Of a stretch of DNA of 64,000 nt, positions 1 to 12,937 are shown one piece after another. The notes below the pieces were generated by a model that saw only the letters and a list, made by a program, of their open reading frames with translations, was not told the origin of the DNA and did no database searches. Each line of letters opens with the position of its first letter. Positions within the stretch are counted from its first letter, which is position 1. The DNA is taken from the NCBI GenBank assembly GCA_050251945.1, contig JBFWLW010000001.1, forward strand, positions 569,107 through 633,106. The letters run 5' to 3'. This stretch comes from Deferribacterales bacterium. Its GTDB lineage: Bacteria; Chrysiogenota; Deferribacteres; Deferribacterales; Geovibrionaceae. The position numbers and the translations under genes were made by a program.

Positions 1-908
1 ATCACACAACGTTCCAGCGATGAGTCGAAACTCATGTTTGCATGACAGAGTATATTTCTCGCTAACTCACATTTATCAGACGCTGTATTTAGAACTCCCC
101 CGCTGCCGCAACTCGAATTTGCCCACTCAGCATCACAGGTCGCCTGCGCCTGCGGGCAGAGATATCCGCCAGAGGTTCCCTCCGTACATTGGTATATTTC
201 AGTTGAGTCGGTGCAGAGATAGCATTTATCGGGATTATCAGTGCAATAAGAACTTATCATATCATCGGGTTCAACTTTCTCTGTTGGCATAGTCCCAGTA
301 ACACATCCAAGCTGTCCGTTGAATTCTACAAGAGCCGGATGGTTCATAGGCTGTCCGGAGTGTTCCCCGGTGTCACTCCATCTGCCTTCGCCATCCATCA
401 GAACCCAGTGTTCGCCGTAAACGGTAACGTTACCGATGTCGCTGCCGCTCACTGCGTTATCCGGCTGCCCAGAAGCCCAATTTCTGTGATTGAGCAAAGT
501 ACCGTCACGCCACTCAAAACGCGTGTCGCCTGTTGAACCCAGATTCTGGGTTTTGTCAGGATCGTACAACCCTATCCACGCCGATGAAGCTCCGCTGTAA
601 CTCACAATATGCTTCAGCAGTGTGTTTATATCTGCATTACGGACAATCGCTGAGGACTGAAAAGAAGTCCACGCCCCCTCGGTTTGCGTGAGCGCGTATG
701 TCGTATTTGTTGAATTGTCATAGACAAAGTTTTTATATGACGAGCTGCATGTGCCACCGGAAGAAACCAGCTCTGTACAGCTTTCAGCGCATTGAGACTC
801 GCAAAACGCCAGAGAATCATATGTTGCACCGTTATCCGAACAGAGCGCAGGCGCGCCGAACGAAACTGAGGCCCAAAGGAATATCAATAACAGTATGGAT
901 TTTTTCAT
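1..908 (-). CDS. Secreted Cys-rich protein with C-type lectin-like domain, TraN-like mating-pair stabilisation protein (partial, runs off left edge)
   Basis: Manually translated from ATG at 908 (TAATG overlap with upstream stop), open to the edge. MKKSILLIFLWASVSFG signal peptide; lectin motifs WIGL, FEWRDG, NWASGQPDN, WSD; many Cys; conjugation-gene context. Confidence 0.7.
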   Translation of the reverse strand, partial: MKKSILLLIFLWASVSFGAPALCSDNGATYDSLAFCESQCAESCTELVSSGGTCSSSYKNFVYDNSTNTTYALTQTEGAWTSFQSSAIVRNADINTLLKHIVSYSGASSAWIGLYDPDKTQNLGSTGDTRFEWRDGTLLNHRNWASGQPDNAVSGSDIGNVTVYGEHWVLMDGEGRWSDTGEHSGQPMNHPALVEFNGQLGCVTGTMPTEKVEPDDMISSYCTDNPDKCYLCTDSTEIYQCTEGTSGGYLCPQAQATCDAEWANSSCGSGGVLNTASDKCELARNILCHANMSFDSSLERCV

Positions 909-2626
909 TAGCTCTCCTCCCCGTATTTCGGCTTGACTGTTACGATTTCTTTAAGGATGCCGCTTTTTCGGCTCTCAAGTTCTGATACATCCCCGAACGC
1001 CTCGGAGACCAAAGGAGTATAAAATGCTTTCTTAAATGAAGAGCCGTCTTTAAATTCAACGGTAAATGGTGCGGAGAAATAGCCGTTTTTAATCAAACCA
1101 TCGGCGATGAGCCTGCGTTCACGGAGCATCTCCGTTACAGTAAAAAGATAATTACGCCGCTGATCCTGATCCGCATCGGCAAGAAGGACTTCCTCATGAA
1201 ATGATTCCCTTGAGAGCTTTTTCAGGATTTTCCAAAGTAGGTCAGTTTGAAAATAAACAACATTATCCGGCATACTGAAAGCGTCAAAACGTTTTCCGTT
1301 TATAACGTTAATCTTGCTGTCCAGTTCAACAATGAACTTATCAATATCAAGCCAGGACAGTTCTGCCTCTGAAGGTCGCTTTTCGTCTTGTGTTTCCACT
1401 ACCGTGCCAAAAATTCTATCAGACTGCTGAGACTGCTTGTTATGTTCTTGTGGCGCATACACGTCTGCTACATCAAGCTGCGGAAGAACCGAAGCAAGTT
1501 CCTTTCTCCTGGCATTTCTGTCTGCTTCTCGCAGCAGATCTGCTAACTCTCCCCCGCCGGTTCTGTGATGACTTAAAATAGCCGTCTCAACATCAGTTTT
1601 ATATGAAAGCTCCGAAAAACCTTCTATCCCGTTCAGAAGCAAAACCGATATCCGTGGATGGTCCCCCATTGAATACATGGCCTTGTCCAGTGCCTCTGAC
1701 TTACCGATATCATGCCCAAACGCAGCAAGCAGAAGCTGTGCAGAATATGCTCCGGGATTTTTAACAAGTTTAAGGACCTCTTCTGCAACATTCAGAGAAT
1801 GCCGCCAAAGATACACTTTTGAGAGAGCAGCATATGTGGACGGCTCTGAATACGGATTTACGTCCGTGCTACGGTTAACAACAGATGGACAGTCGCCCTT
1901 TTCATCAAGCAGCCTCATCACAGCTTCAATGATTTTTTCAGCCGGTAATCCAGCAACGTGATTCTTATAGAACAGAGTGAAATCATATTTATTAAAAACT
2001 ATTTCCGCTTGTTTTTGTATTTGCTCCGGTTTGTTTTCTGTCAGGTTGCGGATATCCGCGACCTGCTTTTTTCCTGTCCATAGACCTGAAAGCGTTTCCA
2101 GAGCTATCTGCTGTTTGTCTTCTTTTTTTTTGATTTCAGCTTTAGGATTTGCAATCACGATTATGATGAACAAAATTGTCAAAGAAAACCAAACGGGGCA
2201 AAATCCATTAAAGACCCCTGCAATAAAAATCACCCCAATCATAATGCCGGCAAAGACAACCTCGGATATCTTTCCAGTTCTTGCCTCTTTAAGACCGTAA
2301 CCGGCTTTCAGAGGATTGATGAACGGAACGCCCGATACAGTTAAAGCGTCCGCATAAATATGCAGGAGAGCGCCGATTAAAAAGAAATAAACAAAAGACA
2401 TGCCGAAATATGCGGAAATCAGAATTGAAAATATATAAATAAGCCACCAATGGCTTGTTTTACGATGAACTTTTTTCCAAAGAGTTTCATTGCCCATGGA
2501 GATAAACCTGTCGATAACATCAGGCAGAACAGACCCTGCCGTAAGTGCGCCTATTATCGCAAAATCATATTTTGCCGTTGCAAAGCCATAAACGGCGCCG
2601 ATAGCAATGTGACTTTTCCATTTCAT
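908..2626 (-). CDS. Fusion of YdjM-like membrane metal-dependent hydrolase (N-term) and HD-domain protein, putative MOBH-like relaxase
   Basis: N-term SH..LPDVID..HRKTSH..HIYADALTVSGVP with hydrophobic helices; C-term RHSLNVA..GHDIGK..SHH..EAD; adjacent to coupling protein. Confidence 0.65.
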   Translation of the reverse strand: MKWKSHIAIGAVYGFATAKYDFAIIGALTAGSVLPDVIDRFISMGNETLWKKVHRKTSHWWLIYIFSILISAYFGMSFVYFFLIGALLHIYADALTVSGVPFINPLKAGYGLKEARTGKISEVVFAGIMIGVIFIAGVFNGFCPVWFSLTILFIIIVIANPKAEIKKKEDKQQIALETLSGLWTGKKQVADIRNLTENKPEQIQKQAEIVFNKYDFTLFYKNHVAGLPAEKIIEAVMRLLDEKGDCPSVVNRSTDVNPYSEPSTYAALSKVYLWRHSLNVAEEVLKLVKNPGAYSAQLLLAAFGHDIGKSEALDKAMYSMGDHPRISVLLLNGIEGFSELSYKTDVETAILSHHRTGGGELADLLREADRNARRKELASVLPQLDVADVYAPQEHNKQSQQSDRIFGTVVETQDEKRPSEAELSWLDIDKFIVELDSKINVINGKRFDAFSMPDNVVYFQTDLLWKILKKLSRESFHEEVLLADADQDQRRNYLFTVTEMLRERRLIADGLIKNGYFSAPFTVEFKDGSSFKKAFYTPLVSEAFGDVSELESRKSGILKEIVTVKPKYGEES

Positions 2627-3927
2627 ACTTCTGCCCTCGGATAAACTACATCAATGTACAAGTCGCTTACTGCGTTGGTTTTACCGAAATATGCTCCATC
2701 GTAGTTGAGCATAAAAAACTCACGGCGCCCCAGGTTCAAAACATCCTCAACCTTCAACACATCTGCTTCAGTCTCTCTGATGTTCAACACTCCGGACGTA
2801 CTCATCATGCTCGTCATCTGCTTTTCAACTCCGAAATGGCGGCAAACGTATTCTGCAGTTTCAGAGTCCGGTACCCGCATGAATCCTTTGTTGTTTGTGT
2901 TGTCGAGAATTGAATTGCCAAAACTCCTGTCAAGCATGGCGTAGATCTGGTTGACACTCTGACAGAACCCAAAAAGCTGGACATTTGCACCGCCAGCTTT
3001 CGCAAAGAAATCGTCAATGCCCTTATAAAGAACGTTTTGAGCTTCATCCATGATGATCTGAAGAGTTGGCTGCACTTTTCTTCCTGAAGAAAAAATACGA
3101 CCGGTATAAGCCTGAAGCATAGAAATCAGAACCTTGCCGACCGTGAACGCCGCTTTCCTTGTTATCAATGAACCGACCTGCGCAACAAGGATTACGCCTT
3201 TACCACTCTCCAGTTTGTCTATAACAGGATTGCCGCGCGCATGTCCGATGACCTGTCCAATGTTACCGGATGTCAGCTCCATCAGCGCAACACGAAGAGA
3301 ACTGGAAACTTTGTTGTAATAATCCTGTCCGGAGTCCACTATTTTTTTGAGATCCGCAGCGAGCTGACGTGTGCTGTCATCGCCCGCTATCGTCTCAACT
3401 TTTTTCTGCAAAGTCTCAAGATCATGGTGAGACACAACGTCTTTGACATCGTTAAAGTTAAATCTCTCCCCGTATTCCTTTTTCGTAAGTACCATGAACG
3501 CCTGCACGATCATCAGAGACGTTTCATAAGCAACGTTGAAAAAGAAGGGCTCTTTTCCGACCTCGATACCGGCTATAAGGTGTCCGACAAGTTCCTCGAT
3601 CATGTAGTAATGTTCAAGCGGGTTCAGTTGGATGCTGTATTGTGGAAAAATCGGGGATAACAGCATTAAATCATCTTCGCGTTTGGCTTCCAGCGCCACC
3701 TGCGTTATCTTGCTGAAAAGTTCAACATCACCTTTCGGATCAATAATAACAACCGAATAACCTTTATTGATACTCTGCTCAACGATGTTCTCTATCATGC
3801 GGGTCTTACCAACCCGTGTGGTACCAAAACACCAAAAATGACCGGAAAGATCAGCATCATTGATTGCGATATCTATTTCTTTGTCCCGCTGGACAAGTCT
3901 GTGTCCGCGTCCGATATACGTCTTCAT
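2623..3927 (-). CDS. traD: Type IV coupling protein (TraD-like ATPase)
   Basis: Walker A GTTRVGKT, IIDPKGD, Walker B IIMDEA, QS motif, TraD-like C-terminus. Confidence 0.85.
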   Translation of the reverse strand: MKTYIGRGHRLVQRDKEIDIAINDADLSGHFWCFGTTRVGKTRMIENIVEQSINKGYSVVIIDPKGDVELFSKITQVALEAKREDDLMLLSPIFPQYSIQLNPLEHYYMIEELVGHLIAGIEVGKEPFFFNVAYETSLMIVQAFMVLTKKEYGERFNFNDVKDVVSHHDLETLQKKVETIAGDDSTRQLAADLKKIVDSGQDYYNKVSSSLRVALMELTSGNIGQVIGHARGNPVIDKLESGKGVILVAQVGSLITRKAAFTVGKVLISMLQAYTGRIFSSGRKVQPTLQIIMDEAQNVLYKGIDDFFAKAGGANVQLFGFCQSVNQIYAMLDRSFGNSILDNTNNKGFMRVPDSETAEYVCRHFGVEKQMTSMMSTSGVLNIRETEADVLKVEDVLNLGRREFFMLNYDGAYFGKTNAVSDLYIDVVYPRAEV

Positions 3928-4616
3928 TTGCCATACCTCACTATGACACGTTCTTTAAGCTCATTAGCCGTAAAGACTATATGTGCTTTAGGAATATACT
4001 TTTCCGTCTGCACAAGGCTTCTTGCGCCTGATATCCGATGGACACAGCTCACAGTGCTCCCCTGAAGCCGGAACAATTCGTCCACAAGACGCTCTGTTGT
4101 ACGGCTCAGGATAAAGCATACCTCTCTGTCCTTTTCAGAAAGCCCCGTCACATGAAACCAAAGTGTTTGTCCGTGAACGTAAGTATTGCGTTCGTGGACC
4201 GGAGTGCTGCGCACTGAACAATAAGCGGGAATACGGATACCTTCTGACGCTTCAGCGTAAAAAACTCCCACTTCCTGCTCATAACGCAGAAAAGAACAAT
4301 GGACAGCTGTACCCACAAACGGCTTTAAATATCTTTGCCTTGAAACGATAGCCTGTGCCTGAAATGCATTCTGAAGAGCTTTCGCCATGTGACGTAGGTC
4401 AGACCTGCGCAAAGAAAAGGTAGATTCTTTTCCACCAAAACCATTAGTTTGATATTTTCTGAGAACAAATCCACCCGACGCAAAATCGCAAACAACAGTA
4501 CAGCGGAGCTTGTGAGTATAAAACTGCTCCGCTGTCTGCCTGAGAATGCCTTTAATTTCATCCTCGCAAAGCCCGTATTTGAAAGCAATTTCATCAAAAT
4601 ATGCTTTCAGCCACAA
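3924..4616 (-). CDS. Divergent NusA-like protein (NTD, S1, KH1-like)
   Basis: Colinear with NusA by eye: EIAFKYGLCEDEI, YVHGQTLWFHV, ILSRT..LVDELF, RISGARS, ANELKERV. Confidence 0.6.
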   Translation of the reverse strand: MWLKAYFDEIAFKYGLCEDEIKGILRQTAEQFYTHKLRCTVVCDFASGGFVLRKYQTNGFGGKESTFSLRRSDLRHMAKALQNAFQAQAIVSRQRYLKPFVGTAVHCSFLRYEQEVGVFYAEASEGIRIPAYCSVRSTPVHERNTYVHGQTLWFHVTGLSEKDREVCFILSRTTERLVDELFRLQGSTVSCVHRISGARSLVQTEKYIPKAHIVFTANELKERVIVRYGK

Positions 4617-4852
4617 AGCTCAATTCTCCCCTGATTGCCGTCTTCCATTACGATAATGAGGATGTCGTCAAAAAATGCAGCGTAATCCCGATCGTCTTCT
4701 GCCTGAACAGCGACACGAAGGACAAGATCCTTCACGCTGTTCAGCGTTTTATTTGCTTCGTTAAGCTGCACGAAGGCGTTAATCGTGTTTTCGTTATAAT
4801 CAGCGTCATTCATGATGTTTTTCCGTTTTTTGTTTTTTCGTTTTTTTATCAC
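4607..4852 (-). CDS. Small hypothetical protein
   Basis: GTGA overlap with ssb stop and overlap with next gene; fills the operon gap; start uncertain. Confidence 0.45.
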   Translation of the reverse strand: MIKKRKNKKRKNIMNDADYNENTINAFVQLNEANKTLNSVKDLVLRVAVQAEDDRDYAAFFDDILIIVMEDGNQGRIELCG

Positions 4853-5280
4853 TCCGTTTTTTCATTTTTTGTTTGTTTTTTAGTTTTTTCGTTTGTGCCG
4901 CCATGGTCGGCATCAGGTTCGTCGAACGCGCCTTCAGCTTCGGAAGATGAGTTTGATTTCGGTTTTGAAAGCAGCTGAACGCTATCGGCAACTATGATGT
5001 GCTTTGACTGTGTTTTTCCGTCTTTTTCCCAAACCTTATAGTCAATTTCTCCTAAAATAATGACTTGGCGACCTTTGGTCAGGTGCTTGTGCATGGCTTC
5101 GCCATATTCACGCCAGACCTCAACGTCGATGTATATAGGTTTTTCTTTGTCTTTATCTTTGTTGGGACGCGTTGTCGCAAGAGTAAAAGAACACACCGCG
5201 ATGTCGCTGCCAGGGAGAAAACGAAGATCTGAGTCCTTCGTCAGGTTGCCAAGGATTATAAGTTGATTCACATAAGCCAT
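4849..5280 (-). CDS. ssb: Single-stranded DNA-binding protein (element-encoded)
   Basis: NQLIILGNLTKD..LRF..KGRQVII.G.I..W OB-fold; GGAGG RBS before ATG 5280. Confidence 0.9.
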   Translation of the reverse strand: MAYVNQLIILGNLTKDSDLRFLPGSDIAVCSFTLATTRPNKDKDKEKPIYIDVEVWREYGEAMHKHLTKGRQVIILGEIDYKVWEKDGKTQSKHIIVADSVQLLSKPKSNSSSEAEGAFDEPDADHGGTNEKTKKQTKNEKTE

Positions 5281-5350
5281 AATACCCTCCAGTGAGTTTC
5301 TAGGATAGAAATGACAGGTGGGGTAAATTAACACATGAGAAGAGAATTAC

Positions 5351-5369
5351 AGTGACCAAATAGTGACCA
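5351..5369. repeat. AGTGACCA direct repeat (11-bp period), candidate integrase arm-type sites
   Basis: Copies at 5351-5358 and 5362-5369, just upstream of the conjugation operon. Confidence 0.45.
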
Positions 5370-5496
5370 TAACTCACAAAAACAAGCAAAGATGAGCAAA
5401 TATAATGATTCTATAATATTTGCCTGTATTAGATATTTACGAATTTAAGGCAATCATTCTTTACGGCAGGAGGCCGGCCTTCCTTTTATATATCAT

Positions 5497-5528
5497 AAGA
5501 TGACGCCGACGTACACCGGCGCCATCTT
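5497..5528 (-). terminator. Hairpin downstream of lipase gene
   Basis: AAGATGACGCCG...CGGCGCCATCTT inverted repeat. Confidence 0.55.
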
Positions 5529-5554: not shown

Positions 5555-7630
5555 TTAATTAGCGATAGCCCTTCTTATCTGACTGCAAAAATCCGCTATA
5601 TACTGTTTCACAAGATTACGCCTGTCACCTGAGATGACGCCGTATGCGACCGCCTGATCAAGAAGCTGGTTTGTGCTGCTTACGGCAAGCTGTTCCAGCC
5701 CGGCGCCAAGTCTGTTCTTCTGATCCTGATCCGGCGCTCTGTCCTGATAAATGGAAACAAACAAATCTTCCTTGTCCGAAGCAAACCTGATCAACAGACT
5801 TTCGAGCTCTTTCTCCGCTTGCGGATACTGTGCCAGCAGAGAGTCAAGGTTGCTTATTCCGAATACGTTTATAAGTATGTAGCGCCATGCCTGCAATTCA
5901 TAAGGAAAAGGGTTTCTGACAGCCGCCAAAGCCATTTCATACGTGCTTCTGGATTCATCGTAAACTGACGAACTCTCAACAAACGCCTTGGTCAGCAGGT
6001 CAATGAACGCTTTCTTCCCGAAGCCGAATTTACCGTAGATTATCGCCGCGTGAGCATCGCCCGATGAGCTGACTGAATCCGGAGCCTGTCCTGAAGACGC
6101 CAGAAGGAGTCTGTTTGCGGCGGAATGACTGCATCCGTTGAACTTGTTATATACTCCGGCGCAGTAATCCGAAGAAACGTTAGGCTGCTGTAACATATTC
6201 AGCAGTGATTTTGAAACCTGAACAGAAGCAAAAGCTCTCGCCATACCGGATTTGTAGTCAGGATTGAAACATGGCCAATAGTTTTCGGAAGAAACATCTT
6301 TTAATCCGACACATTTTACATAAGGTATGAAATCATCCTTAACGTATTCATATCCGAGAACGTTCATCAGTTCAAAAGATTTAAGAACTGCCGTTGTGTT
6401 CAGATACAAGACCATGCACTCCATCAGGTCTTTTATGCCGTGTCCGTTGTGCGTCGATTTCGGCAAAGTGACAAGACAGCCGAGCTTTCCTCCGAAGGTT
6501 GAAACGGGGTCATAGGCTGTCATAAATATCTCTATATTATTTTTCGACTGCCCCATTCTGTCGCTTTTAAGATGGATCATGGAAATTTCCGAAAGCCCCG
6601 CTGGATTATACCCGAAACCGGACATGCGGCTGATATTTCCCGATGCGTTTGCCGTCAGAGAAAACTGAGTAAGCCCGCCGCCAAGGGAATGTCCCGTGAC
6701 ATAAAAATTTTTACCGGGGTAGCTGTCCAGAATTATTTTGAGCAGCCCGGCAGCTTTCAGATAAAGCAGACTGGGTGCGGAAAGCTGCTCGATATCCGCA
6801 TACACCATATCAAGACTGTCCGTACCGGAAAATGACACGACAAGATTATTATCTTTTTTGCCGAGCCACGCCCTGAGCCCGCGGGAACTGGTGATAAGTC
6901 CTTTGGTCTCGTCGTATACTGGCTGGAGATATGACGGCAGTTCCGCTTTCTTCAAATTCACATATCCGCCGCTTTTTGAAGCGTCTATTCCGGAATAGGC
7001 AAAATCAGCGAACGTCAGCATGAGAGAAGCCATCGGCTTGTCAATATTTGTTCGCTTCACCTGATAGAAAAGAGCCGCCTCAAGCTGTGCCGCCGCTATA
7101 TTAAGAATTTCCGGTTCAAAAACCCTTGTGAAAAAATCCTGAATGGCGGTGAAACAACCCTGAATGAGACCTCTGTATTGCGGCAGCAGAACGTCGCCTG
7201 CCTGCGCAAGATACCTGCCCGCTATATCATCATCAGAAGATATCCCGAACCACTCCTTAAGGTCGTCAACAACGTCCCTTATCCTGCTTATTGAGTGAAA
7301 AAGAAGTCCCAGAACTCCCTGAAGCATCTGCGGACGGTTCACTTCCCTTCTGCAAAGATCAAGTATCGCCTGTTCTTCCGGAAGAAGTGAAAATCCCGAG
7401 CGTATCTTGTCTTCAAACATCTCAATAGCGACGGTATAGGTCTGTTTTATAATAAGAACCGCGTCGCTCTGGGAAACACTGGACGGATTTTTCAAATACT
7501 GCTGTTCCAGATCCTTTATCTTTTTAAGCACATCGTCAATTTCTGACGACGCTTTCAGATACATACTGTCACTCAACATCGGCACTGCCTTAAGCAGACC
7601 GCGTTTTATTGGTAAATATAATTTTTCCAT
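5555..7630 (-). CDS. Class-3 lipase / alpha-beta hydrolase domain protein with C-terminal domain paralogous to the upstream gene
   Basis: SFSGTD, VTGHSLGGGL, YNPAG, DPVS, HGI triad motifs; GGAGG RBS. Confidence 0.8.
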   Translation of the reverse strand: MEKLYLPIKRGLLKAVPMLSDSMYLKASSEIDDVLKKIKDLEQQYLKNPSSVSQSDAVLIIKQTYTVAIEMFEDKIRSGFSLLPEEQAILDLCRREVNRPQMLQGVLGLLFHSISRIRDVVDDLKEWFGISSDDDIAGRYLAQAGDVLLPQYRGLIQGCFTAIQDFFTRVFEPEILNIAAAQLEAALFYQVKRTNIDKPMASLMLTFADFAYSGIDASKSGGYVNLKKAELPSYLQPVYDETKGLITSSRGLRAWLGKKDNNLVVSFSGTDSLDMVYADIEQLSAPSLLYLKAAGLLKIILDSYPGKNFYVTGHSLGGGLTQFSLTANASGNISRMSGFGYNPAGLSEISMIHLKSDRMGQSKNNIEIFMTAYDPVSTFGGKLGCLVTLPKSTHNGHGIKDLMECMVLYLNTTAVLKSFELMNVLGYEYVKDDFIPYVKCVGLKDVSSENYWPCFNPDYKSGMARAFASVQVSKSLLNMLQQPNVSSDYCAGVYNKFNGCSHSAANRLLLASSGQAPDSVSSSGDAHAAIIYGKFGFGKKAFIDLLTKAFVESSSVYDESRSTYEMALAAVRNPFPYELQAWRYILINVFGISNLDSLLAQYPQAEKELESLLIRFASDKEDLFVSIYQDRAPDQDQKNRLGAGLEQLAVSSTNQLLDQAVAYGVISGDRRNLVKQYIADFCSQIRRAIAN

Positions 7631-7642
7631 AAAATACCTCCG

Positions 7643-8506
7643 TTAAAGCATATTGCCCCTTTCCACATGCAGAGCCATTGCGCGAACGCTCTGTATATAT
7701 CTGTCAAGAAACGCGGAGATGCGGTTGATATATGTGCTTCTGTCCGATTCGCTGATATAGTGTATAGTGCTGAGCCAGTTCAGATAATCCGAAGTGTGCT
7801 GAATAATGGTCGTTTTGATTTTATTCTGCACCCCGTGCTGGTCAAGTCTGCCTGCAAGATAGTCCGAATAGATCGCTTCTCTTGCCGTCACATAAGCCTG
7901 CAAACGCTGTCTGGCTATGGCAAGCCCTGCCTGAGGGCTTTTCGCAAGAATACCGTCTACGTCTATTCCCGCCTCTTCAATGGCAATTTTGCGCCATGCC
8001 AGAAGTTCGTCGTCAATATAACTGCTGAGCCTGTTCATCACTGTGTTATATGCATTCTGATTATCGGTGTAGCCTGCCGTAACAGTATTGTAAGCCGTCA
8101 CCAGAAGCTGCCTGAGCTGATCAAGCCCCATTCCGTATTTTCCGAAGAAAAACACCGCATACTCGTCTTTTGCCGCCTGCCGCACGTCGGCGGAAGCATC
8201 GCAAACAAGCAGCTCTCTGTTGGCGAGGGTGTGACACACACCGTTCACGCAAAAATGTATTCCACCCCTAGAGCCTTCCGTGCCGGGCGGAACGTAAGTC
8301 ATCAGCCACTCCTTATAACAGTTTACGGTTGCAACTAGTGTTTTCGGATCCGAAGTACCCCAGCCCCTTCCGAAATTTGTCCATTGGATGCTTCTGTCGC
8401 TCTTGCTCACCACAAAAGAGTGGGTTGAGTTGGGAACGACATAAGCTGAATCCAGAGAGTACGCCTCGACTGTCATCAAGCTTATTCCGGGTTTATCACC
8501 ACCCAT
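7643..8506 (-). CDS. Hypothetical protein with His...NGVCHxxANR motif (possible permuted papain-like thiol enzyme)
   Basis: AAGGAGG RBS before ATG 8506; 12-bp gap to lipase gene; THSF and NGVCHTLANR motifs. Confidence 0.7.
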   Translation of the reverse strand: MGGDKPGISLMTVEAYSLDSAYVVPNSTHSFVVSKSDRSIQWTNFGRGWGTSDPKTLVATVNCYKEWLMTYVPPGTEGSRGGIHFCVNGVCHTLANRELLVCDASADVRQAAKDEYAVFFFGKYGMGLDQLRQLLVTAYNTVTAGYTDNQNAYNTVMNRLSSYIDDELLAWRKIAIEEAGIDVDGILAKSPQAGLAIARQRLQAYVTAREAIYSDYLAGRLDQHGVQNKIKTTIIQHTSDYLNWLSTIHYISESDRSTYINRISAFLDRYIQSVRAMALHVERGNML

Positions 8507-8660
8507 GCTGAACCTCCTTAAACAATAAGATATTAAATCATACCCACCTGTTAAATTAATTGTCAAACAGAAAACATTTCTTCATGATCAGCACATATGT
8601 TCACCATGCAATTAATGTGGTTTTTTTCAATTACTTGAGTATTGTGATTTGACTGATAAA

Positions 8661-8706
8661 AAAAGCCGACTCGCCTTTTTTATAAAAAGGTCTCCAGTCG
8701 GCTTTT
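8661..8706. terminator. Intrinsic terminator
   Basis: AAAAGCCGACT...AGTCGGCTTTT inverted repeat. Confidence 0.7.
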
Positions 8707-8744: not shown

Positions 8745-9308
8745 TCAGATTTCCATCCCCACCAGTTTCCATGAGAAAAGTCCGTGTCTTTCAAATATCA
8801 TGCTGACGGGACTCTCCTTCTCCTGAGTAATAGTGAAGGCAAACTTATTCAGGCTTCTGTAGCCGCTTGAAAAATCCACGGATTTACCGGAATCCTTTTC
8901 TTTTGCGGTGTTTTCCGAACTTTGTCCATCTTCAGACTGTCCGGCATCATCGTCTCCGCCCTTTGGCTTTATCCCGTTTTTCATCACCATGGCGAGAGCT
9001 TCGGGGGTGACAAGGCTGTCGACCAGCTGGTCCACAATACTGGCTGCGAAAGCGGTTCCAAGTGCACCCAAAGCCCCTGCATACTCGCTGTTTGCAAGCT
9101 CTTTTGCTACCCTTGCATTAAATGTCGCTTTCAGATTCTCCCTTAACTTAGGATAATCGACATATCCGGAAAGCTTATCGGCATTTCCCTCTTCTCCAGC
9201 TGATCTAATTGAATACAGCGCATAGAAAGGAGAAGCGAAATATACTGCAAAAAATATTATAACAAGAGTTGTGACGGCTAAAATTCTCTTTTTCATAAAT
9301 AACCTCAT
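8745..9308 (-). CDS. DUF2939 family protein
   Basis: N-term TM, ASPFYA..YVDYPKLRENLK..LVTPE..R.GLFSWKL. Confidence 0.75.
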   Translation of the reverse strand: MRLFMKKRILAVTTLVIIFFAVYFASPFYALYSIRSAGEEGNADKLSGYVDYPKLRENLKATFNARVAKELANSEYAGALGALGTAFAASIVDQLVDSLVTPEALAMVMKNGIKPKGGDDDAGQSEDGQSSENTAKEKDSGKSVDFSSGYRSLNKFAFTITQEKESPVSMIFERHGLFSWKLVGMEI

Positions 9309-12645: not shown

Positions 12646-12671
12646 AACAACTTACAAAGTCAGGAAAATGC

Positions 12672-12755
12672 GAGATCGCGTCGTCGCATGCGCTCCTCGC
12701 GAAGACATAAGATACTGTCATTGCGGGGAAGCTGACGGGCTGACGAAGCAATCTC
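12672..12755. repeat. REP-like palindromic element
   Basis: GAGATCGCGTCGTC...CGCGAAGAC..GTCATTGCG...GACGAAGCAATCTC; 12654-12730 closely matches the reverse complement of 59024-59100. Confidence 0.8.
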
Positions 12756-12781
12756 ATTACTAGGCGCATGAAAGCGTCTTT

Positions 12782-12913
12782 AAGACTGATTACAAAATCA
12801 AAAAAAGATCGCGCCGTCGCGTACGCTCATCGCGAAGACAAAAAAACGTCTCTGCGAGGGGTTTTAACCCGAAGCAGTCTGAGTCTTTGTAAATTTAATT
12901 TGTCAACAACCTG
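12782..12913. mobile_element. MITE with IS1182-like ends carrying a REP-like palindrome
   Basis: Ends AAGACTGATTACAAA / TTTGTCAACAACCTG; imperfect 19-bp direct repeats at 12762-12780 and 12914-12932 form the terminator. Confidence 0.7.
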
Positions 12914-12937
12914 AGGCGCATACAAGCGCCTTTTTTT

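Follow-up and report, generated by a model that had tools for sequence, protein, structure and literature searches.

A conserved gene pair linking a His/Cys enzyme-like protein to a class-3 lipase that carries its degenerate copy

Organization of the locus

The window analysed here is a stretch of 64,000 nt (C1:569107-633106) from a 3.07-Mb genome (G000), and the closest named relatives of its proteins belong to Seleniivibrio (83% and 95% protein identity). Two genes on the reverse strand, spaced by 12 bp and hereafter called A and B, form the module under study, with A first and B following (Table 1). Each is preceded by a GGAGG ribosome-binding site. Because the AAGGAGG of gene A lies 6 nt before the ATG at 8506, the start yielding a 287-aa protein is favoured over the TTG at 8566; the A orthologs in G002 and G006 are identical to it in start and length. 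The promoter candidate upstream of A has 11/12 matches to the consensus and was the best among 10 sites found, compared with 7.0 expected in shuffled sequences. Beyond the stop codon of B there is a stem-loop (z -1.95 for the 100-nt segment, a modest value) that possibly marks the transcript end.

Table 1. Coordinates of the A-B module and flanking features in the window
Feature	Position	Strand	Description
Gene A	7643..8506	-	287 aa; N-terminal His/Cys domain (~10-165) and C-terminal helical bundle; predicted permuted papain-like cysteine enzyme
Gene A His29 codon	8420-8422	-	At strand start
Gene A Cys91 codon	8234-8236	-	At helix N-terminus
Gene B, entire	5555..7630	-	691 aa; lipase plus degenerate copy of A
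B residues 1-190	7061..7630	-	Helical N-terminal region, common to the caspase-coupled lipase; predicted inhibitory pro-domain
B residues ~192-412	6395..7057	-	Class-3 lipase fold; triad S315/D374/H397 intact
B residues ~419-691	5558..6376	-	Degenerate gene A copy (Cys440 for His, Ser501 for Cys); predicted pseudo-enzyme
Gene A ribosome-binding site AAGGAGG	8513..8519	-	6 nt 5′ of ATG at 8506
Sigma-70-like promoter candidate TTGACA-18-TATGAT	8537..8566	-	Upstream of A; consensus match only
13-bp stem-loop without U tract	5497..5528	-	After B stop codon
22-bp att-like direct repeat	5464..5485	.	Context; closes ~63-kb ICE; other copy C1:511711-511732
DUF2939 gene	8745..9308	-	Context; match to PADLOC candidate PDC-S55, E 2e-46

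The copies of the 22-bp repeat lie 62.9 kb apart and bound an ICE (C1:511711-574591) with tra-like genes, inserted just past an EamA-like gene; the distal copy is followed by a 394-aa ORF that looks integrase-like by eye, and window positions 1-5485 constitute the right end of the element. The module had been described as lying beside an ICE end. It does adjoin that end, but it lies outside the ICE, past the repeat, and in G002 and G006 this site holds the module but no ICE, so the link is incidental.

Several neighbouring features deserve mention in their own right. The low-GC cargo of the ICE (~C1:543900-556500) contains many unannotated genes, some of which look by eye like defence or toxin-antitoxin genes. 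An ICE gene at window positions 908-2626, adjoining the coupling protein, encodes a YdjM-like membrane domain fused to an HD-domain (relaxase-like) protein. Short dispersed repeats at 12654-12915 (~12665-12760 and ~12795-12915) occur in dozens of copies in G004 and G005 and are REP- or MITE-like.

Gene A is homologous to the C-terminal region of the lipase

Global alignment of A with B residues 413-691 gave 68/271 identical positions (25%) and a score of 132, compared with a mean of 11 and a maximum of 34 for 500 shuffles. BLASTP aligned A 42-193 with B 452-605 (E 1e-14, 29% over 155 aa), and a profile-profile comparison of A with the B tail returned a probability of 99.4 (E 3.7e-21, 196 columns). 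In the AlphaFold models (mean pLDDT 84.7 and 84.2) the order of strands and helices is identical in A and in B 421-690. The preliminary description had A colinear with the C-terminal ~270 aa of B; both ORFs are present, the alignment, BLASTP and profile methods agree, and the matching motif pairs that it listed all fall in register in the global alignment. It had also noted a missing His and a Ser at the Cys site of the fused copy, and indeed B Cys440 aligns with A His29 and B Ser501 with A Cys91. B Cys500 is not conserved, being Thr in 21/25 homologs.

The His/Cys dyad is kept in unfused proteins and lost in most lipase fusions

A representative search for the A-like domain recovered 72 proteins at E <= 0.001. 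For the family set, 103/104 proteins matched the domain profile, of which 93 were analysed after removal of pieces <230 aa and one repeat protein. Both His29 and Cys91 are retained in 58 of 61 unfused homologs, the exceptions being two truncated fragments and P0074; one row counted as unfused, P0056, is in reality a truncated fusion. Across 48 homologs His29 is invariant and Cys91 is present in at least 90%. Among the 32 lipase-fused copies, both dyad residues are absent from 27 and both present in five. The 27 degenerate fusions have Lys (13), Thr (11), Cys (2) or Tyr (1) at the His position and Ala (20), Ser (5), Gly (1) or Val (1) at the Cys position.

A quick IQ-TREE run (SH-aLRT only) placed the degenerate copies in a single clade (SH-aLRT 100), to which three stand-alone proteins and three active fusions are joined (SH-aLRT 95). 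The relatives of gene A fall elsewhere in the tree and include two further active fusions, P0054 and P0042. Since the degenerate copies form one clade apart from the group of A, the B tail is an old paralog whose active site was lost once and which has been kept since; an origin of the tail as a local duplicate of A was ruled out by the same placement. The intact His/Cys domain of P0042 is fused to a different class-3 lipase, indicating that the lipase link arose more than once, and single-chain lipases with an intact domain are represented by P0054, P0061, P0064 and P0065.

Among G000, G002 and G006, dN/dS was ~0.05 for A and 0.04-0.06 for the whole of B; within B, the lipase domain gave 0.02-0.03 and the degenerate domain (B 414-575) gave 0.04-0.10, with some comparisons involving G006 saturated. 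These ratios show strong purifying selection on the degenerate copy, and the other domains of the pair are under purifying selection as well. The dyad pattern and this selection support the earlier proposal of an enzyme/pseudo-enzyme pair.

Two further architectures occur in the family. P0025, a homolog of the lipase-pseudoenzyme protein, has an additional C-terminal Jacalin lectin domain (E 2.7e-14). A 173-aa protein (L103:1486-2007) has a hydrophobic N-terminus and the His/Cys core only (E 1.7e-4), which suggests that one branch of the family is secreted and consists of the catalytic domain alone.

Linkage, distribution and inheritance of the module

An intact A lies directly upstream of a degenerate-fusion B at 5/5 loci fetched: G000, G002 (= L001), G006, Kineothrix L002 and metagenome contig L080. 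These represent three independent lineages, and the co-occurrence of A and B homologs that a two-gene module implies thus holds at all five. The distribution is rare and patchy, across unrelated phyla. The module is present in 3/7 genomes of the genus and 0/9 other genomes of the family, and the other genomes of the order (n=45) yielded one distant single homolog. It was found in 1/401 Lachnospiraceae and in 1/320 scored Clostridia, both times in the seed genome itself; a second Lachnospiraceae match was weak and was rejected.

Within the genus, the slot between the EamA-like gene (assigned by eye) and kamA is variable. It is empty in G005, holds a 74-aa ORF in G004, the module together with sulfate-assimilation-like genes (by eye) in G006, and the module with the DUF2939 gene in G000 and G002. 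The module has a dS of 0.6-0.8 between G000 and G002, compared with 0.58 for the neighbouring kamA, and a GC content of 47.3%, compared with 46.6% for the genome and 40.7% for the ICE. A dS near that of kamA and a host-like GC content point to vertical inheritance at one site in Seleniivibrio, unlike a fast-moving defence cassette.

Gene B encodes a class-3 lipase fold with an intact triad

The lipase domain of B has a GxSxG nucleophile, an Asp and a His on a class-3 fold. S315 (within GHSLGG), D374 and H397 are invariant in 25/25 B homologs, so the triad reported previously is intact. The best Foldseek match of B is the T6SS lipase effector 9cys (E 8.8e-6), with other class-3 lipases scoring equally well by structure. 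Three low-confidence loops in the AlphaFold model of the N-terminal region (11-16, 104-108 and 170-173) are candidate cleavage sites. Neither A nor B has a hydrophobic N-terminus, a hydropathy cut passed by just 2/93 family rows; judged by this cut, the earlier statement that both lack a signal peptide holds, and the two proteins are probably cytoplasmic.

Gene A plausibly adopts a permuted papain-like fold

Domain, structure and profile searches assigned A to no known family, with no match in Pfam, NCBIfam or the PDB, and detected no caspase- or trypsin-like character; neither A nor B matched a PADLOC HMM (PADLOC-DB 2023, whose coverage precedes newer systems). In line with the preliminary description, the searches run gave the pair no family assignment, and we found no account of the A-B module in the open-access literature searched, the comparison also taking in the accessible parts of two further reports (PMC12799240; 10.64898/2025.12.03.692087). 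The pair is a real, conserved and unannotated enzyme/pseudo-enzyme-lipase module.

According to the accessible text of two papers, permuted papain-like NlpC/P60 (PPNE) enzymes have their Cys at the N-terminus of the core helix and their His on a beta-strand (PMC3142127, PMC10318531). DSSP assignment of the A model locates His29 on strand 29-34 and Cys91 at the start of helix 91-98 (pLDDT ~70-73 around residues 81-120), so the model shows the His-before-Cys order with both residues on the corresponding elements. The nearest neighbours of A 5-135 in ESM feature space are IcsB_M, TseH, Lnb_N and CLN5 (scores 0.89-0.93), which we treat as leads. Foldseek and VIA result lists for A consisted mostly of helical-bundle matches, PPPDE and Ac81 were below threshold (E 0.75 and 1.3), and hhalign of A against shallow TseH, LRAT, DUF3750 and Lnb profiles gave no match, as was also the case for 6/6 known-versus-known controls. 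Position 44, a candidate third polar residue, is Asn in 30/61 and Cys in 27/61 unfused homologs; among 13 close homologs, 11 have Phe and two have Tyr at position 85, a candidate oxyanion Tyr. The earlier assignment to the permuted papain-like enzymes therefore has the language-model neighbours and the secondary-structure pattern on its side, with Foldseek, VIA and the profile test speaking neither for nor against it; on that basis the fold is plausible for A.

A caspase takes the place of the His/Cys domain beside a close lipase relative

Parabacteroides faecis (L003) encodes a 381-aa lipase with the N-terminal helical region and the lipase domain but without an A-like tail. Its sequence matches that of the active fusion P0061 at 49% identity across 308 aa, and the two are sisters (support 89) in a quick lipase-domain tree of 25 rows that included 18/27 degenerate fusions. 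Five bp upstream lies a caspase gene (Pfam C14, E 5e-28) with His-Gly and Ser-Cys motifs. The presence of a caspase in place of the His/Cys domain is the simplest sign of this domain being a protease with the lipase as its target; by analogy, the single locus hints that the His/Cys domain activates it. The proposal of a protease-activated lipase has thereby gained one comparative case. A linked caspase- or trypsin-type protease gene was found for the L003 relative only, and not for A-B.

The caspase-lipase unit (L003:8964-10942) occurs in 1/401 Bacteroidales, the query genome itself, and is itself a candidate for a lipase system activated by a protease. A second tail-less lipase relative (L004:403-3196) is preceded by two similar-looking ~210-aa proteins without a Pfam, NCBIfam or PADLOC match.

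Defence context

PADLOC was run on 60/90 listed ORFs at six loci, omitting duplicates and genes scanned earlier. The only full-length matches were PDC-S55 (window and L001) and a type IIG RM gene (L081), the remainder being partial ATPase, HTH or similar cross-matches. No validated defence system was detected in the flanks of the four A-B loci screened, where the only full-length match among the scanned proteins was the candidate PDC-S55, and at the fifth (L080) the one flanking gene had no PADLOC match. The DUF2939/PDC-S55 gene, with a separate hairpin and T run of its own (~8652-8706), adjoins the module at 2/3 Seleniivibrio loci (G000 and G002) and not in G006. In L081, a distant stand-alone homolog of A is flanked on one side by an HTH gene and on the other by the type IIG RM gene plus PD-T4-6 (E 1e-101). 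Another such homolog is carried by a Bacillus plasmid, where an integrase, an S16 protease and a HEPN/nucleotidyltransferase pair are found nearby. Neither A nor B has an evident sensor domain, and no immunity-like gene is linked to the module at the loci examined. Defence-island support is weak. For the preliminary suggestion of an undescribed anti-phage or toxin system, the links to defence islands are thin.

Possible functions of the module

We tentatively favour, at somewhat less than an even chance, a protease-gated lipase effector with a pseudo-enzyme docking domain, possibly anti-phage. Here A, as a permuted papain-like cysteine protease, would bind B by way of the related domain that lacks His and Cys; that domain would serve docking and regulation, while the N-terminal helical region of B would act as a pro-domain holding the lipase inhibited. 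Following a stress or phage trigger, A may cut this region (at loops 104-108 and 170-173), and the freed lipase would attack the inner membrane and kill or arrest the cell. The more ambitious version is a new cell-death or anti-phage system built on a prokaryotic protease/pseudoprotease switch: a lipase zymogen would recruit members of a novel family of permuted papain-like proteases via the pseudo-protease fused to it, and caspases could replace the protease. This version is doubtful, though within reach.

The main rival is lipid remodelling, because the nearest characterised permuted enzymes by ESM features are acyltransferases or phospholipases. A would then be a phospholipase or acyltransferase of permuted NlpC/P60 type, comparable to LRAT/PLAAT, Tox-Act1, Lnb or CLN5, and would work in series with B, with the dead copy as a structural subunit; lysolipids made by B might, for example, be transacylated or hydrolysed by A; as a sub-variant, A may acylate B and thereby target it to the membrane. 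The accessible text of one study places lipid acyltransferases and phospholipases, rather than proteases, among families of the IcsB_M/TseH/Lnb_N/CLN5 type (PMC12994826), and permuted members are described, as far as the available parts of the sources go, as lipid-acting with hydrophobic S1 pockets (PMC3142127; PMC12994826). Repeated fusion of the domain to lipases, the housekeeping neighbourhoods and the vertical inheritance fit this explanation as well. However, a caspase replaces the domain beside the L003 lipase, distant members without a lipase reside in conflict-like or mobile loci, and the distribution is very sparse and spans unrelated phyla. On balance, we regard lipid remodelling as unlikely, yet deserving of weight.

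It is improbable that the genes form a toxin-antitoxin-like pair, in which B would be a constitutively toxic lipase neutralised by A through binding of the homologous domain or through modification or degradation of B. The small gene comes first with a 12-bp spacer, linkage is complete at the five loci and the pair has long been retained at one chromosomal site, but single-chain intact-domain versions (P0054, P0061, P0064 and P0065) and lipase-only versions (L003 and L004) exist, and a DNA-binding domain was seen in neither A nor B. Secreted antibacterial effectors of T6SS or polymorphic-toxin type (a Tle-like lipase with a TseH/Tox-Act1-like enzyme) are very improbable: the 9cys match and TseH among the neighbours of A recall them, but other class-3 lipases match the B structure as well, no adjacent secretion or immunity genes and no signal or PAAR/Rhs domain were seen, and VipB (PF05943) was not found in 5/5 carrier genomes, three of them 96-100% complete, with a model that detected the E. 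coli control and may miss Bacteroidota systems.

If correct, the protease-gated effector would bring two new elements into the protease-effector logic of bacterial immunity, a protease family so far without annotation and a pseudo-enzyme adaptor. The family also offers natural controls, since one lipase occurs in a split, a fused-active and a caspase-driven version. Under lipid remodelling, there would still be a so far unstudied family of His/Cys enzymes, connected with lipid metabolism and accompanied by a conserved pseudo-enzyme. The protease-gated effector would further supply a clear lipase-fold hydrolase for a module class whose substrate, according to the accessible part of a recent report, is still open (10.1101/2025.11.14.688446).

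Comparison with known systems

B shares its fold and Ser-Asp-His triad with T6SS Tle effectors (9cys) and other class-3 lipases (LipA, fungal lipases, plant PLA1 and EDS1/PAD4), but has additional N- and C-terminal domains, no linked immunity gene, and hosts in which VipB was not found. Caspase-8 and cFLIP are a protease-pseudoprotease pair. The likeness to A-B lies in an active cysteine enzyme accompanied by a dead paralog predicted to regulate by homotypic contact, whereas the folds are unrelated and the dead copy in A-B is fused to the putative substrate and effector. With PPNE enzymes, A shares the strand His preceding a helix-N-terminal Cys and neighbours drawn from PPNE families in ESM space; it differs in showing no clear conservation of the third residue or of the oxyanion Tyr, and in having an extra ~120-aa helical bundle and a dead paralog on a lipase as its partner.

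Among the closest parallels is LcCaspase-LcHydrolase, where, in the accessible text of the report, caspase cleavage activates the zymogen of a toxic lipase-like alpha/beta hydrolase (10.1101/2025.11.14.688446). Both systems link a cysteine protease gene, predicted in the case of A, to a lipase-like alpha/beta hydrolase, and the layout at L003 is identical. Relative to what that text describes, the partner role in A-B is filled by a His-before-Cys protein rather than a caspase, and B, at 691 aa, combines a class-3 lipase with a helical region at its N-terminus and a pseudo-enzyme fused to it, but has no fused sensor. A-B falls outside the caspase and trypsin modules described so far, but most likely works, by analogy, like a protease-activated hydrolase effector.
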